From the NCBI RefSeq assembly GCF_003790525.1, contig NZ_CP033635.1: a stretch of DNA of 64,000 bases; one strand, written 5' to 3'. Under the pieces are notes generated by a model. That model saw only the letters and a program-made list of their open reading frames with translations, searched no databases and had not been told where the DNA came from. This DNA is from Escherichia coli. GTDB taxonomy: Bacteria; Pseudomonadota; Gammaproteobacteria; Enterobacterales; Enterobacteriaceae. The position numbers and the translations under genes are program-made. Numbering within the stretch: position 1 is the stretch's first letter; the number at the start of each line of letters is the position of its first letter. Shown here piece after piece: positions 3,148 to 53,797 of the stretch.

Positions 3148-3211
3148 AAGAAAACGCCTGTACTAAAACCGACCCGTGGTACAGGCGAAGAATACGGGTC
3201 TACATCGGAAG
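3148..3211 (-). ncRNA. rydC: RydC small regulatory RNA (Hfq-dependent, pseudoknot)
   Basis: Reverse complement reads CTTCCGATGTAGACCCGTATTCTTCGCCTGTACCACGGGTCGGTTTTAGTACAGGCGTTTTCTT, the 64-nt RydC sequence as I recall it, in the cybB-ydcA intergenic region. Confidence 0.8.
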
Positions 3212-3381: not shown

Positions 3382-3555
3382 ATGAAAAAACTGGCACTTA
3401 TCTTGGTTATAGGAGCGCTTGTTTCCTTTTATGCCGATGCCGGGCGCAAACCCTGTTCTGGTTCGAAAGGGGGGATCTCACACTGTACGGCAGGCGGCAA
3501 ATTTGTCTGTAATGATGGTTCTATTAGTGCATCGAAAAAAACATGCACTAACTGA
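3382..3555 (+). CDS. ydcA: Small secreted protein YdcA (57 aa, signal peptide)
   Basis: ATG at 3382 preceded by GGAGG; translation MKKLALILVIGALVSFYADAGRKPCSGSKGGISHCTAGGKFVCNDGSISASKKTCTN; below the 60-aa ORF-track cutoff. Confidence 0.85.
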   Translation: MKKLALILVIGALVSFYADAGRKPCSGSKGGISHCTAGGKFVCNDGSISASKKTCTN

Positions 3556-3600
3556 AGTGTAAAAGGGGTGCCATGAGAAAATGAATCTGCTAGTCAGATG

Positions 3601-3619
3601 CGCGGGGAAAATCCCCGCG
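3601..3619 (-). terminator. Hairpin downstream of hokB (cgcgggg-aaaa-tccccgcg)
   Basis: GC-rich inverted repeat 8 bp downstream of the hokB stop codon on the minus strand; no clear U-tract. Confidence 0.4.
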
Positions 3620-3626
3620 CTTGCCC

Positions 3627-3822
<196 letters not shown>

Positions 3823-3834
<12 letters not shown>

Positions 3835-3885
3835 TCGTTGGCCTCGGTTGATAGAAATATTGGTCGGGGCCTTCGTCTTTCTGAT
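3823..3885 (+). ncRNA. sokB: SokB antisense RNA (antitoxin of hokB/mokB); boundaries approximate
   Basis: Position antisense to the mokB RBS/start as in hok/sok loci; exact 5'/3' ends not determinable by eye. Confidence 0.35.
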
Positions 3886-4108
3886 TCCCGGTTAGCCTGA
3901 AAACAGAAAGTCTCAGGCACCCGTGAGCATCCTATGTGGTTTCCTTAAGGACGAAAATAATCACCTGACGAAATTGCGTGCTGTTTTCCAGAATTTTTCG
4001 TCATTCGGTTTAGCCAGTTTAATCATTCGTTACTCTCTTCATTCCAATGGCATTATTCTTCTCTGCCATAATTGTTGTAAAAATGTGACGCAAAGAGGTT
4101 TTTGGTCG

Positions 4109-14866: not shown

Positions 14867-15168
14867 TTATCGGTTTCTGTCAGCGATTAAATTCAACACC
14901 ACGTAACAAACGCCTCCGGCAATTAATCCCCAAAACGCAGAACCAATCCCGACCAGCGTCAATCCACTTGCCGTTACCAGAAATGCCACCACCGCCGCGT
15001 CGCGCTCACGCTCATTATGCAGCGCCTGATACAAACTGCCGCCAATGGTACTCAACAGCGCCAGACCTGCCAGCATCTGGATCCAACTTACGGGCAGGGT
15101 AGTCATCATCCCGGTAATGGCACTACCAAACAGACCTGCGAGCAAATAGAAAATGCCTGCAACGGCAG
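14867..15168 (-). pseudogene. ydcO: ydcO (BenE-family benzoate transporter) C-terminal fragment, separated from the rest of the gene by IS4
   Basis: Minus-strand frame ...LIGITAVAGIFYLLAGLFGSAITGMMTTLPVSWIQMLAGLALL...NLIADRNR* is open up to the IS4 left end; hydrophobic transporter C-terminus. Confidence 0.8.
15157..15168. repeat. IS4 target-site duplication, left copy (CTGCAACGGCAG)
   Basis: Identical 12-mer directly abuts both IS4 termini (second copy 16594..16605). Confidence 0.85.
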
Positions 15169-16593
15169 TAATGCCGATCAGTTAAGGATCAGTTGACCGA
15201 TCCAGTGGCTGTGTAAGAATCCGGAAACGCTCACTTGTTTCCGGATTTTTTATGCACATTGGACAGGCTCTTGATCTGGTATCCCGTTACGATTCTCTGC
15301 GTAACCCACTGACTTCTCTGGGGGATTACCTCGACCCCGAACTCATCTCTCGTTGCCTTGCCGAATCAGGTACTGTAACGCTACGCAAGCGCCGTCTTCC
15401 CCTCGAAATGATGGTCTGGTGTATTGTTGGCATGGCGCTTGAGCGTAAAGAACCTCTTCACCAGATTGTGAATCGCCTGGACATCATGCTGCCGGGCAAT
15501 CGCCCCTTCGTTGCCCCCAGTGCCGTTATTCAGGCCCGCCAGCGCCTGGGAAGTGAGGCTGTCCGCCGCGTGTTCACGAAAACAGCGCAGCTCTGGCATA
15601 ACGCCACGCCGCATCCGCACTGGTGCGGCCTGACCCTGCTGGCCATCGATGGTGTGTTCTGGCGCACACCGGATACACCAGAGAACGATGCAGCCTTCCC
15701 CCGCCAGACACATGCCGGGAACCCGGCGCTCTACCCGCAGGTCAAAATGGTCTGCCAGATGGAACTGACCAGCCATCTGCTGACGGCTGCAGCCTTCGGC
15801 ACGATGAAGAACAGCGAAAATGAGCTTGCTGAGCAACTTATAGAACAAACCGGCGATAACACTCTGACGTTAATGGATAAAGGTTATTACTCACTGGGAC
15901 TGTTAAATGCCTGGAGCCTGGCGGGAGAACACCGCCACTGGATGATACCTCTCAGAAAGGGAGCGCAATATGAAGAGATCAGAAAACTGGGTAAAGGCGA
16001 TCATCTGGTGAAGCTGAAAACCAGCCCGCAGGCACGAAAAAAGTGGCCGGGACTGGGAAATGAAGTGACAGCCCGCCTGCTGACCGTGACGCGCAAAGGA
16101 AAAGTCTGCCATCTGCTGACGTCGATGACGGACGCCATGCGCTTCCCCGGAGGAGAAATGGCGGATCTGTACAGTCATCGCTGGGAAATCGAACTGGGAT
16201 ACAGGGAGATAAAACAGACGATGCAACTGAGCAGGCTGACGCTGAGAAGTAAAAAACCGGAGCTTGTGGAGCAAGAGCTGTGGGGTGTCTTACTGGCTTA
16301 TAATCTGGTGAGATATCAGATGATTAAAATGGCAGAACATCTGAAAGGTTACTGGCCGAATCAACTGAGTTTCTCAGAATCATGTGGAATGGTGATGAGA
16401 ATGCTGATGACATTGCAGGGCGCTTCACCGGGACGTATACCGGAGCTGATGCGCGATCTTGCAAGTATGGGACAACTTGTGAAATTACCGACAAGAAGGG
16501 AAAGGGCCTTCCCGAGAGTGGTAAAGGAGAGGCCCTGGAAATACCCCACAGCCCCGAAAAAGAGCCAGTCAGTTGCTTAACTGACTGGCATTA
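15169..16593 (+). mobile_element. IS4 insertion sequence (1425 bp) with 18-bp imperfect terminal inverted repeats
   Basis: Left end TAATGCCGATCAGTTAAG, right end CTTAACTGACTGGCATTA; encodes a 442-aa IS4-family transposase; flanked by 12-bp direct repeats. Confidence 0.9.
15252..16580 (+). CDS. insG: IS4 transposase (DDE; Y-x2-R-x3-E-x6-K signature [16 protein letters not shown])
   Basis: 442-aa ORF beginning [28 protein letters not shown], which I recognise as IS4 InsG. Confidence 0.9.
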
Positions 16594-16605
16594 CTGCAAC
16601 GGCAG
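16594..16605. repeat. IS4 target-site duplication, right copy (CTGCAACGGCAG)
   Basis: Identical to 15157..15168. Confidence 0.85.
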
Positions 16606-17476
16606 CGGCCAGCCAACGTTGATCTTTATCCGGATGCGCTTCCGGGCTTTGGCAAATAGCCGCGGTGATTGCCGCAATACCGACGGAATAAACGCCGAAA
16701 GGGGAAAAAACCAGTGCCAGCAATCCAGTAAATACAATTAATGGCGAAACAGGAGCCGAATATCCGGCTGCTTTCATTGCTGCGATACCCGGTGCGTTTT
16801 GCGATGCCATCGTCACCAGAAAAAGGGGGAGTGCAACGCTCAGGCTGTGAGCAAACGAAAAATCAGGGCTAATATAAGTGGGGAGAACGGGTTTAAAGAC
16901 AACATCAGTTGTGACAATGTCACCTTGCGCGATAACGATCACGACCCCAATAATCATCGCGGCAATTACCGCATAGCGCGGCGCAACGGCCCTGGTTGCC
17001 AGCCATACCAGCAACATACTGCCACACAACGTAAATTGACCATCCAGGCTCGCAAACGCCTGTAAACCAAAGCGTAATAAAATCCCGGCAAGCATTGCCG
17101 CCGCAAGCGAGTGCGGAATAATGCGCATCAGATGAGCAAAGAGTCCCGTTATGCCGCAGAGGACTATTAACGCGTTGGTGACAATAAAAACGCCGATGGT
17201 TTCGTTAAGTGTTAGTCCCTGCAATCCGGTGACCAACAAAGCCGCGCCAGGCGTTGACCATGCGGTGAGAACAGGTACGCGATACCATAATGTCAGAGCC
17301 AGCGTACTGACGCCCATTGCCAGCCCCAGCGCCGTCATCCAGCCAGAGATTTGTGCAGTGGTGGCTCCGGCGACAATCGCTGCTTGCCAGATTATTGCCG
17401 CTGAACTGGCGTAGCCAATTAATACCGCCAGAAACCCCGCCAGTAGCGTGGGTGGAGGAATAGAAAACAGACGCAT
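16594..17476 (-). pseudogene. ydcO: ydcO (BenE-family transporter) N-terminal portion, truncated by IS4
   Basis: Start MRLFSIPPPTLLAGFLAVLIGYASS with GAGG RBS; the frame runs into the IS4 right end and stops inside it; joining with 14867..15168 after removing one 12-bp repeat restores a ~391-codon gene. Confidence 0.8.
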
Positions 17477-17567
17477 AGTCACCTCGTGCGTTATAGCGTA
17501 CAGGCACCGTAGCATTTGTCCGTTATAACGCACAAGTGATAAACTTCCGTTTTGCCGGAGGAGTCGC

Positions 17568-20681: not shown

Positions 20682-20858
20682 GTGAAACAAAGCGAGTTCA
20701 GACGTTGGCTCGAATCTCAGGGCGTCGATGTAGCGAATGGCAGCAACCATTTAAAACTGAGGTTTCATGGGAGGCGCAGTGTCATGCCGCGTCACCCCTG
20801 CGATGAGATTAAAGAACCATTGCGTAAAGCAATCCTGAAACAACTCGGTTTGAGTTAA
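20682..20858 (+). CDS. hicA: Type II toxin HicA (mRNA interferase), GTG start
   Basis: 58-codon frame MKQSEFRRWLESQGVDVANGSNHLKLRFHGRRSVMPRHPCDEIKEPLRKAILKQLGLS; below ORF-track cutoff; immediately upstream of hicB. Confidence 0.88.
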   Translation: MKQSEFRRWLESQGVDVANGSNHLKLRFHGRRSVMPRHPCDEIKEPLRKAILKQLGLS

Positions 20859-26973: not shown

Positions 26974-28398
26974 ATGCAACATAAGTTACTGATTAACGGA
27001 GAACTGGTTAGCGGCGAAGGGGAAAAACAGCCTGTCTATAATCCGGCAACGGGGGACGTTTTACTGGAGATTGCCGAGGCATCCGCAGAACAGGTGGATG
27101 CTGCTGTTCGCGCGGCAGATGCAGCATTTGCCGAATGGGGGCAAACCACGCCAAAAGCGCGTGCGGAATGCCTGCTGAAACTGGCGGATGTTATCGAAGA
27201 AAATGGTCAGGTTTTTGCCGAACTGGAATCCCGTAATTGTGGCAAACCGCTGCATAGTGCGTTCAATGATGAAATTCCGGCGATTGTCGATGTTTTTCGC
27301 TTTTTCGCGGGTGCGGCGCGCTGTCTGAATGGTCTGGCGGCAGGTGAATATCTTGAAGGTCATACTTCGATGATCCGTCGCGATCCGTTGGGGGTTGTGG
27401 CTTCTATCGCACCGTGGAATTATCCGCTGATGATGGCAGCGTGGAAACTGGCTCCGGCGCTGGCGGCAGGGAACTGCGTAGTGCTTAAACCATCAGAAAT
27501 TACCCCGCTGACCGCGTTGAAGTTGGCTGAGCTGGCGAAAGATATCTTCCCGGCAGGCGTGATTAACGTACTGTTTGGCAGAGGCAAAACGGTGGGCGAT
27601 CCGCTGACCGGACATCCCAAAGTGCGGATGGTGTCGTTGACGGGCTCTATCGCCACCGGCGAGCACATCATCAGCCATACCGCGCCGTCCATTAAGCGTA
27701 CTCATATGGAACTTGGTGGTAAAGCGCCAGTGATTGTTTTTGATGATGCGGATATTGAAGCAGTGGTCGAAGGTGTACGTACTTTTGGCTATTACAATGC
27801 TGGACAGGATTGTACTGCGGCTTGTCGGATCTACGCGCAAAAAGGCATTTACGATACGCTGGTGGAAAAACTCGGTGCTGCGGTGGCAACGTTAAAATCT
27901 GGTGCACCGGATGACGACTCTACGGAGCTTGGACCTTTAAGCTCGCTGGCGCATCTCGAACGCGTCAGCAAGGCGGTAGAAGAGGCGAAAGCGACAGGGC
28001 ACATCAAAGTGATCACTGGCGGTGAAAAGCGCAAGGGTAATGGCTATTACTATGCGCCGACGCTGCTGGCTGGCGCATTACAGGACGATGCCATCGTGCA
28101 AAAAGAGGTATTTGGTCCGGTAGTGAGTGTTACGCTCTTCGACAACGAAGAACAGGTGGTGAACTGGGCAAATGACAGCCAGTACGGACTTGCATCCTCG
28201 GTATGGACGAAAGATGTGGGCAGGGCGCATCGCGTCAGCGCGCGGCTGCAATATGGTTGTACCTGGGTCAATACCCATTTCATGCTGGTAAGTGAAATGC
28301 CGCACGGTGGGCAGAAACTTTCTGGTTACGGCAAGGATATGTCACTTTATGGGCTGGAGGATTACACCGTCGTCCGCCACGTCATGGTTAAACATTAA
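26974..28398 (+). CDS. patD: Gamma-aminobutyraldehyde dehydrogenase
   Basis: 474-aa aldehyde dehydrogenase (ELGGKAP, catalytic Cys in GQDCTAA context). Confidence 0.92.
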
Positions 28399-28438
28399 GG
28401 ATAATATTGCAGATCGTAATAGTATGAGATGATCTTGC

Positions 28439-28471
28439 GTACTGTCAGAGCACTGATTTCTCTGACAGTAC
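28439..28471. terminator. Perfect hairpin (gtactgtcagag-N9-ctctgacagtac) between convergent patD and yncL
   Basis: 12-bp perfect inverted repeat; no U-tract on either strand, so terminator function is uncertain. Confidence 0.35.
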
Positions 28472-28494
28472 GTGCTGCGTGCAAAATCACTACA

Positions 28495-28590
28495 TCAAAT
28501 AAACCAGCCAAATCTCATAGAGATAAGAGTAAATAAACCAACAGCAGCAAAGACATTTATCAGTACTACAGTTCTACTGGAAACATTCAT
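28495..28590 (-). CDS. yncL: Small membrane protein YncL (31 aa)
   Basis: Minus-strand frame MNVSSRTVVLINVFAAVGLFTLISMRFGWFI*, single TM; below ORF-track cutoff. Confidence 0.75.
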   Translation of the reverse strand: MNVSSRTVVLINVFAAVGLFTLISMRFGWFI

Positions 28591-28784
28591 TTTTGCCACC
28601 TTTTATCATTGCCCCTATGTGTATAGTACGGGTTCAGAAAATCCGCAATAATACTCATTCTGAAGATGGATAAGGGCAAGTTGCTGTTAGATGATTTTTT
28701 CTCAAACGGGTGAAAAAACTTGATGCACGTCAAAAAATGACGCATATTTGCGCGCGTTTTATTCATCTGGCTGGACGCCCGTAC

Positions 28785-28958
28785 ATGTCTCTCTATCAAC
28801 ACATGCTTGTTTTTTATGCGGTTATGGCAGCAATCGCATTTCTTATCACCTGGTTTCTTTCTCACGATAAGAAACGCATCCGTTTCTTAAGCGCCTTTCT
28901 GGTGGGGGCAACATGGCCGATGAGTTTCCCGGTGGCGCTGTTGTTTTCACTGTTTTAA
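28785..28958 (+). CDS. ortT: Orphan toxin OrtT (YdcX; 57-aa membrane peptide)
   Basis: Internal start of ORF 28710..28958: MSLYQHMLVFYAVMAAIAFLITWFLSHDKKRIRFLSAFLVGATWPMSFPVALLFSLF. Confidence 0.8.
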   Translation: MSLYQHMLVFYAVMAAIAFLITWFLSHDKKRIRFLSAFLVGATWPMSFPVALLFSLF

Positions 28959-29043
28959 ATCTTACTCACTGGCTTGACGGCACCACGCAGACTTATATCA
29001 TTTGGATGAATCGATAAATTTCACAAGTGGCTAAGGAGAAAGT

Positions 29044-29277
29044 ATGTCGCATCTGGATGAAGTCATCGCGCGCGTGGATGCCGCGATTGAAGAGAGCGTC
29101 ATTGCCCATATGAACGAATTATTAATCGCCCTGAGCGATGACGCGGAGTTAAGTCGGGAAGATCGCTACACCCAGCAGCAGCGTTTGCGCACAGCGATCG
29201 CCCATCACGGTCGCAAGCATAAAGAAGATATGGAAGCGCGCCATGAACAGTTAACCAAAGGCGGCACCATCCTGTGA
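29044..29277 (+). CDS. ydcY: Small protein YdcY (DUF2526)
   Basis: 77-aa ORF at the conserved position. Confidence 0.85.
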   Translation: MSHLDEVIARVDAAIEESVIAHMNELLIALSDDAELSREDRYTQQQRLRTAIAHHGRKHKEDMEARHEQLTKGGTIL

Positions 29278-52099: not shown

Positions 52100-53488
52100 T
52101 TATTTTTGGCTGAACTTCCGCCGACCATAAACCAGCCAGGTCAGCAGCACACAAACGATGTAGAAGATTAAAAACACTTTCATCGCGCCCACCGGAGAGC
52201 CGGTCATATTGAGCGACATGCCAAACGCCTGCGGAATAAAAAAGCCGCCCACTGCGCCAATGGCTGAGATAAAGCCCAGAGCGGCTGCCGTTTCGGTGAC
52301 GGCTTCTCTTTGAGCTTGCTCATCACTACCGCCTTTCATCTTCACCCGATAAATGGTTATCTGGCGAAAGATGACGGCGATCATCTGGAAAGTAGAACCA
52401 CTTCCCAGACCCGCGGTCAGAAACAGCCCCATAAATACGGCGTAAAATGCGATGAAATTACCGGAGCCTGTGCCCGGTAAGGTAAGGAACAGCAGGGCGC
52501 TGAAAATCGCCATAAAAATGAAGTTGATCAACGTCACCCGCACGCCGCCGAATTTATCGGAAATAGCACCACCAAGCGATCGCGCGATGGCACCGATAAA
52601 TGGGCCAAAGAACGCCAGGCGCAGAATATTCACATCCGGGAACTGAGTTTTCGCCAGCATGGCAAAACCCGCAGAAAAACCGATAAACGAACCGAAGGTG
52701 GCAAGGTAAAGCAGGCTCAGCAGCCAGAGATGCAGGCGTTGTAACACTGGCAGCTGGTCGGCAATTGACGCGCGTGAACTGGCGATATCATTCATCCCTG
52801 ACCAGGCGGCGATCGTGGCAATCGCCAGTAATGGCACCCAAATCCATGCGGCATTCGCCAGCGACATTACCGAACCGTCGGCCTGCGGTACGCCATTGAC
52901 GCCGAGAAAGGCAAATACGGGTACAAAAATGACCAGCGGTGCAACCAGCTGCATCACACTTACACCTAAGTTTCCTAATCCGCCATTAATCCCAAGTGCG
53001 CTCCCTTGTTTGGCTTTTGGGAAGAAGAAACTGATATTGCCCATGCTCGAAGCAAAGTTCGCACCTGCAAAACCGCATAGCAAAGCGATAACGATAAATA
53101 TCCCAAAAGGAGTATTCGGATTCTGCACGGCAATTCCGAGCCAGACGCAAGGAATAATCAGGATTGCAGTACTAAAAACCGTCCATCGGCGTCCACCGAA
53201 TATAGGCACCATAAAGGAGTAGGGGACACGCAATAATGCGCCAGAAACGGAGGGTAATGCGGTTAATAAAAAGAGTTGATCGGTAGTGAAATTAAAACCG
53301 ATTTTATTGAGATTAACAGTAACTGCGCTAAATAGCATCCAGACACAGAAGGCAAGAAGTAGACAACTGACTGATATCCAGAGGTTTCTTCGTGCAATAT
53401 GTTTTCCTTTATTTTCCCAGAAGGCCGGATTTTCTGGTTTCCAGTCGCGTAAAAGATAACGACTATTTTTCTCATTTTGCAGTGCCAT
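52100..53488 (-). CDS. narU: Nitrate/nitrite transporter (MFS, NNP family)
   Basis: ORF 52100..53530; start at MALQNEKNSRYLLRDWKPENPAFWENKGK (462 aa). Confidence 0.93.
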   Translation of the reverse strand: MALQNEKNSRYLLRDWKPENPAFWENKGKHIARRNLWISVSCLLLAFCVWMLFSAVTVNLNKIGFNFTTDQLFLLTALPSVSGALLRVPYSFMVPIFGGRRWTVFSTAILIIPCVWLGIAVQNPNTPFGIFIVIALLCGFAGANFASSMGNISFFFPKAKQGSALGINGGLGNLGVSVMQLVAPLVIFVPVFAFLGVNGVPQADGSVMSLANAAWIWVPLLAIATIAAWSGMNDIASSRASIADQLPVLQRLHLWLLSLLYLATFGSFIGFSAGFAMLAKTQFPDVNILRLAFFGPFIGAIARSLGGAISDKFGGVRVTLINFIFMAIFSALLFLTLPGTGSGNFIAFYAVFMGLFLTAGLGSGSTFQMIAVIFRQITIYRVKMKGGSDEQAQREAVTETAAALGFISAIGAVGGFFIPQAFGMSLNMTGSPVGAMKVFLIFYIVCVLLTWLVYGRRKFSQK

Positions 53489-53797
53489 ATTGTTCCTCAC
53501 ATGCACACATTGGTAATGAAAAAAAGACAAAACAGGAGGTAAGGCGCAATAGCCAGTTATTAGAATTAAGGATGAATCAGGTGAAGTGCTGATTAGAAGA
53601 ATAGATAAGAAAGCGTAACTGCGGGGGCAGAATGTGGATTAGACAGACAGATATGTGTTACTAAATGTAACCATTAAACGGGGGTTAATCTTTGAACGTA
53701 TGTCATGTTTCAACCCTTCAGATCGTGAATCTAAAGGGTTGCATATTAACTATATTCTCAACAAGACCAGACACTTATAGAATTAGTGATGATTTAT

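Follow-up and report, generated by a model that had tools for sequence, protein, structure and literature searches.

Background

The small E. coli protein OrtT resembles GhoT, the toxin of the type V system GhoT/GhoS, with which it shares its Pfam family, length, two membrane helices, the conserved F38, membrane damage and loss of ATP. It is 63% identical to GhoT and of the same size, with helices predicted at residues 6-26 and 34-54 (PMC4344625). Production of OrtT brings about 99.99% lysis within 2 h, condenses the nucleoid, leaves 'hollow' cells and lowers ATP 27-fold; the toxicity is abolished by an ATG-to-ACG mutation of the start codon and lowered by F38R (PMC4344625). Unlike ghoT, ortT has no GhoS-type antitoxin gene adjacent to it. 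GhoS does not neutralise OrtT, and neither do YdcY, the flanking intergenic RNA or a genomic library of approximately 3-fold coverage (PMC4344625). The two toxins also differ in stress specificity, antifolates and the stringent response for OrtT versus carbenicillin for GhoT. Inducers of the ortT mRNA are TMP, RelA, mupirocin (MUP), SHX (~89-fold) and heat, and in the presence of trimethoprim or sulfamethoxazole a delta-ortT strain shows better metabolism and growth; there has been no direct detection of the protein to date (PMC4344625).

The protein YncL has been likened to YohP (27 aa), which is also single-pass and induced in stationary phase or under stress, likewise depolarises the membrane sublethally and condenses the nucleoid, and depends on sigma-S in Salmonella (PMC12542507, PMC5437024). 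YohP and YncL are named and studied as separate proteins from different loci, and the likeness is one of function. Cells producing YncL are sublethally depolarised, have condensed nucleoids and are hypersensitive to magainin-2 (PMC12542507). That YncL is translated and located in the membrane was reported by Hemm et al. 2008/2010 and Fontaine et al. 2011, as these papers are cited in PMC12542507 and PMC10470546, through which tagged protein in E. coli is also reported. Expression is higher in minimal medium, in stationary phase and upon heat shock according to Hemm et al., as cited in PMC12542507. For Salmonella, a translational yncL-lacZ fusion was found to be expressed and sigma-S-dependent, the transcript having earlier been called the sRNA STnc1110, and Flag-tagged YncL was not detected there (PMC5437024). 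Cleavage dependent on RseP was seen in three in vivo assays and not reproducibly in vitro (PMC10470546). HokB is another small inner-membrane toxin that dissipates proton-motive force and ATP, and it is an RseP substrate like YncL (PMC10470546). Nearly all functional data on OrtT and YncL come from plasmid overexpression.

Results and discussion

Identity and layout of the locus

The locus studied here occupies positions 28495-28958 of the window, which is the whole stretch of 64,000 nucleotides of E. coli DNA that was analysed, and extends from the stop codon of yncL to the stop codon of ortT. The two frames lie on opposite strands and are divergent, with a spacer of 194 bp between them (Table 1). 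The aldehyde dehydrogenase gene patD is convergent with yncL, 96 nt separating the end of patD from the yncL stop codon, and ydcY is found 3' of ortT. A 1-kb stretch around the two genes matches E. coli SMS-3-5 (NC_010498.1) at 100% identity, and for this genome the RefSeq annotation has yncL and ortT at exactly the same coordinates.

The K-12 MG1655 genes yncL (b4598; 1517099-1517194) and ortT (b1445; 1517389-1517562) are separated by a spacer of equal length. Five nucleotide differences from K-12 were found in the 464-bp interval, only one of them non-synonymous. It is located in yncL and gives V13 here and F13 in K-12, as the one substitution between two YncL proteins of 31 aa that otherwise have the same position, strand and ribosome-binding site. 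OrtT (YdcX) is identical to the K-12 protein over all 57 aa, and the flanking genes patD, yncL and ydcY are the same. A sequence-only reading of the window had named a yncL of 31 aa and an ortT of 57 aa and called both intact. ORFs, RefSeq and K-12 agree on this, and a comparison with the K-12 small-gene annotation, which that reading had proposed as a check, gave both genes in the same layout.

We are close to certain that the interval consists of two independent, divergently transcribed E. coli genes, both characterised before, whose products are small inner-membrane proteins, with a conserved control region of 194 bp between them. No observation speaks against this identification, and the reservations bear on mechanism. 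Both genes are already known, being annotated in K-12 and RefSeq and having dedicated experimental papers, and the observation is correct but ordinary. The present comparison adds support from conservation for the start codons, the location of candidate promoter blocks and of a covarying hairpin 3' of yncL, and an adjacency of yncL and ortT that is widespread but dispensable.

Table 1. Features of the yncL-ortT locus and of other small genes and RNA elements in the window.
Feature	Position	Strand	Remarks
yncL CDS	28495-28590	-	ATG start, 31 aa, MNVSSRTVVLINVFAAVGLFTLISMRFGWFI; stop codon 28495-28497; RefSeq WP_001303494.1 'stress response membrane protein YncL'
ortT (ydcX) CDS	28785-28958	+	ATG start, 57 aa, MSLYQHMLVFYAVMAAIAFLITWFLSHDKKRIRFLSAFLVGATWPMSFPVALLFSLF; RefSeq WP_000061178.1 'orphan toxin OrtT'
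yncL Shine-Dalgarno AAGGTGG	28596-28602	-	read from sequence; 5 nt upstream of ATG; kept in almost all orthologous loci
Candidate yncL promoter	28620-28648	-	TTGCGG (28648-28643), 17-nt gap, TATACA (28625-28620) preceded by C; putative
Candidate ortT promoter	28720-28756	+	(C)TTGATG 28720-28725, 17-nt gap, CATATT 28743-28748, then GCGCGCG; putative, conserved in 25 loci
Inverted repeat	28438-28472		perfect 13 bp, 9-nt loop; between convergent patD and yncL
ydcA-type gene	3382-3555	+	57 aa, signal-peptide-like N-terminus; WP_000731851.1; NCBIfam NF007462, 142.6 bits
yncP	3581-3649	+	22 aa, annotated; overlaps hokB 3' end on opposite strand
hokB	3627-3776	-	49 aa, type I toxin; RefSeq CDS; Pfam HOK_GEF, 83 bits
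mokB-like frame	3667-3834	-	55 aa, intact, overlaps hokB; unannotated in this RefSeq record
hicA	20682-20858	+	58 aa, type II toxin, GTG start; WP_000813794.1; Pfam HicA_toxin, 30.9 bits vs cutoff 27
sokB antitoxin RNA of hokB	3771-3922	-	Rfam RF01794, above gathering score
RydC sRNA	3148-3211	-	Rfam, above gathering score
SECIS element inside fdnG	59599-59657	+	Rfam, above gathering score

The two proteins

OrtT gave a full-length match to the Pfam family PF10753 Toxin_GhoT_OrtT, with a score of 96.9 bits against a cutoff of 22.1, residues 4-57 of 57 being aligned to profile positions 1-55 of 55. It has the features of this family, a length of about 57 aa and a pair of hydrophobic helices with a short basic loop between them: in the hydropathy profile, hydrophobic segments cover residues ~6-26 and 34-57, and the loop between them reads SHDKKRIR. 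The family match and the identity with the K-12 protein bear out the earlier designation of OrtT as a 57-aa orphan toxin. The term 'small membrane peptide', which had been applied to YncL and OrtT alike, is apt, except that OrtT has two predicted membrane helices and is not single-pass like YncL.

Membrane-damaging toxicity was shown for the identical K-12 protein (PMC4344625). In the picture drawn from the literature, the hairpin of two hydrophobic helices inserts into the inner membrane and damages it, and OrtT production collapses the proton-motive force, lowers ATP and, at high dose, lyses the cell. The toxin has no antitoxin, and low expression keeps it harmless. Stringent-response conditions and heat induce it, upon which it acts as a metabolic brake.

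YncL matched the NCBIfam equivalog NF000537 with 72.5 bits against a cutoff of 35, over profile positions 1-30 of 30. Peptides of this family measure about 30-31 aa, begin with MNVSS[RK], end with [RK]F.WF and have one hydrophobic helix; YncL shows all of these features. One hydrophobic segment, at residues ~7-25, was found, in accordance with the single transmembrane segment previously assigned to it. In the YncL alignment the residues M1, V3, S4, S5, N12, R26, F27, G28 and F30 are invariant, and this signature is kept in distant representatives. In an exhaustive profile search, only 47 representative clusters were recovered for the YncL family. No Pfam family was assigned to YncL by hmmscan, yet PF28073:YncL is given in precomputed annotations, evidently from a different Pfam version.

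YncL, according to the literature, is a single-pass membrane protein of 31 aa made in stationary phase, in minimal medium and upon heat shock. Its depolarising effect is milder and sublethal; it triggers a phage-shock response, reduces protein synthesis and condenses the nucleoid. At least in vivo, the intramembrane protease RseP removes YncL.

Association of yncL and ortT

A scan of species-representative genomes resulted in 80 ortT loci, from Escherichia, Citrobacter, Salmonella, Enterobacter, Kosakonia, Lelliottia, Leclercia, Phytobacter, Pantoea, Cedecea, Buttiauxella and other genera. ortT is an orphan at the present locus, where its neighbours are yncL and ydcY and no GhoS-family gene is nearby; patD is located upstream in 62 of the 80 species loci.

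The layout of the locus invites the reading that yncL and ortT form a functional pair, either as a co-regulated module for depolarisation or with YncL as the missing modulator or antitoxin of OrtT. The genes are adjacent, divergent and approximately 190 bp apart in 25 of the 80 loci, those with yncL upstream of ortT belonging to Escherichia, Citrobacter, Salmonella, Intestinirhabdus, Pluralibacter and a MAG labelled Raoultella, and the same layout occurs again with a YncL of only 47% identity (L093/L094). Strongly conserved blocks are present in the spacer, both genes are induced by heat, and overproduction of either protein leads to depolarisation or ATP loss and to nucleoid condensation. It also fits this reading that yncL was not present in full in the OrtT-UTR construct of Islam et al., whose insert was confined to the intergenic DNA. 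However, 55 of the 80 ortT loci have neither a yncL-like nor any other small hydrophobic ORF upstream. The surroundings of distant yncL genes are unrelated and include no gene of the OrtT family, and a distance of ~540 kb separates yncL from ortT on a single contig of Lelliottia sp. WAP21 (L037 vs L089; JAIWPG020000001.1). The screen of the genomic library gave no antitoxin (PMC4344625), and YncL is mildly toxic itself, not protective (PMC12542507). Taken with its evidence on both sides, a functional pair has a slim chance of being the right description.

The two genes adjoin each other in only part of the lineages, either can be found without the other, and they are probably not an obligate pair; their adjacency is old, although it can be dispensed with. 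A narrower version concerns the lineage of Escherichia, Citrobacter and Salmonella together with at least one diverged relative. In these, the two genes could make up a co-regulated stress module of graded potency, read divergently from one control region of 194 bp, in which YncL might tune or pre-empt OrtT. We regard this as quite improbable. If it were true, tuning by YncL would help to explain how an 'orphan' toxin is tolerated.

Diverged yncL homologs adjoin genes for yniD-like proteins, YoaK, Pmp3 and EAL/GGDEF (c-di-GMP enzyme) proteins, not ortT (L037, L085-L092), and genes for small membrane proteins appear to cluster in several of these loci. A GhoS-family gene located 3 kb from a distant yncL (L085/L092) was considered as a possible partner. 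It was judged coincidental, as there is no GhoT-family gene adjacent and four unrelated genes lie between; its place is presumably that of E. coli ydiZ, between pfkB and yniA.

Start codons and translation signals

For yncL, a 34-aa form starting at GTG was rejected, since the GTG at 28599 falls within AAGGTGG, the conserved ribosome-binding site that serves the ATG. The start codon given for yncL in PMC5437024 is the same ATG, three codons downstream of the GTG. An 82-aa form of ortT, also with a GTG start, was rejected as well, since 66 of the 80 orthologous loci have an in-frame stop codon within the 25 codons upstream of the ATG. The PF10753 model begins at residue 4 of the 57-aa form.

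In contrast to yncL with its AAGGTGG, no Shine-Dalgarno sequence can be recognised for ortT in the majority of the 80 species (positions 28765-28784 and the orthologous loci). Judged from the sequences, this may be a built-in way of keeping basal translation low for a toxin without antitoxin.

Candidate promoters, hairpin and RNA elements

The spacer between yncL and ortT is 70% identical across the 25 loci, compared to 41-55% for the outer spacers, and the conserved positions cluster in blocks. Of the non-coding blocks in the spacer, those of the candidate yncL promoter are conserved best in these 25 species loci. Transcription would start near 28613 (-) for yncL and near 28755 (+) for ortT. 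Its CTATACA is consistent with a sigma-S-like -10 element, which in turn is consistent with the sigma-S dependence of Salmonella yncL-lacZ (PMC5437024).

In the candidate ortT promoter, the putative -10 element is directly followed by an invariant GCGCGCG (28750-28756), which resembles a GC-rich discriminator. GC-rich discriminators are usually linked to negative stringent control. The block contrasts in this respect with the reported induction of ortT by the stringent response.

A simple scan with the sigma-70 consensus detected no promoter for yncL or ortT in the spacer; the only good match nearby, at 28974-29001, serves ydcY. The terminator scan gave only two terminator-like matches, which lie inside ortT or the spacer and correspond to chance frequency, and no canonical terminator for either gene.

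On the yncL-sense strand, the inverted repeat between patD and yncL folds into a predicted hairpin of -29.1 kcal/mol (z = -4.25). Of 24 distinct sequences, 23 retain a hairpin here, and the stems of Citrobacter and Salmonella differ by compensatory changes. The hairpin lacks a U-tract on both strands and in this departs from the classical intrinsic terminator. We consider it likely that the hairpin constitutes a shared 3' end or terminator of patD and yncL; it may also be a stability element, or part of a patD-yncL 'excludon'. patD-yncL is among the gene pairs with overlapping transcription (PMC12288877).

No Rfam family was found in the region at gathering thresholds, and up to an E-value of 10 only chance-level matches were obtained for 28350-29100. 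HokB has its cis-encoded antisense RNA antitoxin sokB, in contrast to ortT and yncL, for which this search of 28350-29100 gave no match to an antisense RNA family that could act as a type I antitoxin.

The patD/yncL junction (28389-28494) is a hot spot for insertions. The O103 strain and related strains carry ~1.3 kb at this position (L004 2688-4106), including a frameshifted gene for a CatB-related acetyltransferase, and across species the gap from patD to ortT varies from 177 to ~2950 nt.

Evidence that both frames are coding

The number of ORFs with an ATG start and at least 31 aa in the window is 340, compared to 353 +/- 17 in shuffled sequence. An open frame of 31 codons alone is no evidence for a gene, as it is not above chance. 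The status of yncL and ortT as genes therefore rests on the family models and on conservation.

Lack of conservation in other E. coli genomes had been named beforehand as the result that would speak against the two genes, and the opposite was observed. A match was found in 5404 of 5426 complete E. coli genomes, counting those that cover at least 80% of the 1-kb query at an identity of at least 95%. An O103 strain differs by 25 substitutions in 912 bp (2.7%); each gene has one synonymous change, and identical YncL and OrtT proteins with the same accessions are encoded.

In other species, ortT is intact at 57 codons in all 80 orthologs and yncL at 31 codons in all 24 clear orthologs. Measured against the window, yncL has a pN of 0.089 and a pS of 0.48, with a pooled dN/dS of 0.12, and ortT a pN of 0.12 and a pS of 0.76, the latter with synonymous sites saturated. 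The identities at codon positions 1, 2 and 3 are 0.89, 0.92 and 0.68 for yncL and 0.88, 0.96 and 0.57 for ortT. Conservation of both frames is far above chance. Both are present and intact, belong to their respective families and are under purifying selection.

These data bear on the reading that the yncL locus is mainly a non-coding small RNA, known as STnc1110 in Salmonella, in which the 31-codon frame is incidental. The Salmonella transcript was first catalogued as an sRNA, a conserved hairpin is found 3' of the ORF, and the yncL mRNA is present in RIL-seq/TRIC-seq interaction maps as a partner of RprA and KilS. In these maps, however, yncL is a target and not a regulator, and no Rfam model corresponding to STnc1110 matched the region. 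The selection seen in yncL acts at the protein level, as judged by the pooled dN/dS, the variation in third positions, the invariant length and the conserved AAGGTGG. In addition, the translational yncL-lacZ fusion is expressed (PMC5437024), and tagged protein has been reported in E. coli, as cited in PMC12542507 and PMC10470546. A mainly non-coding function of the locus is very unlikely, and we keep yncL as a protein-coding gene.

That yncL and ortT are chance open frames in intergenic DNA and not genes could be argued from 31-codon ORFs being equally common in shuffled sequence, but is contradicted by cross-species conservation of the frames, the family models and the published experiments, and has a negligible probability.

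Other small genes and features of the window

RefSeq annotates six genes below 60 aa in the window: the ydcA-type gene, yncP, hokB, hicA, yncL and ortT. The sequence-only reading had counted at least five real genes of this size and had listed ydcA (57 aa), hicA and hokB besides yncL and ortT. All of these are present and intact, and the count was a slight underestimate. yncL and ortT were correctly recognised from the sequence alone, even though they fall below the 60-aa cutoff applied to ORFs. Such a cutoff hides real genes, of which there are at least six in this window.

Around hokB (3581-3834) the small genes are densely packed. At ~53022-55009 there are genes for leucine-rich-repeat proteins, one intact and one truncated, which we take to be absent from K-12. 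The gene ydcO for a BenE-family transporter (~14867-17515) is split by IS4, the transposase CDS of which covers ~15252-16580.
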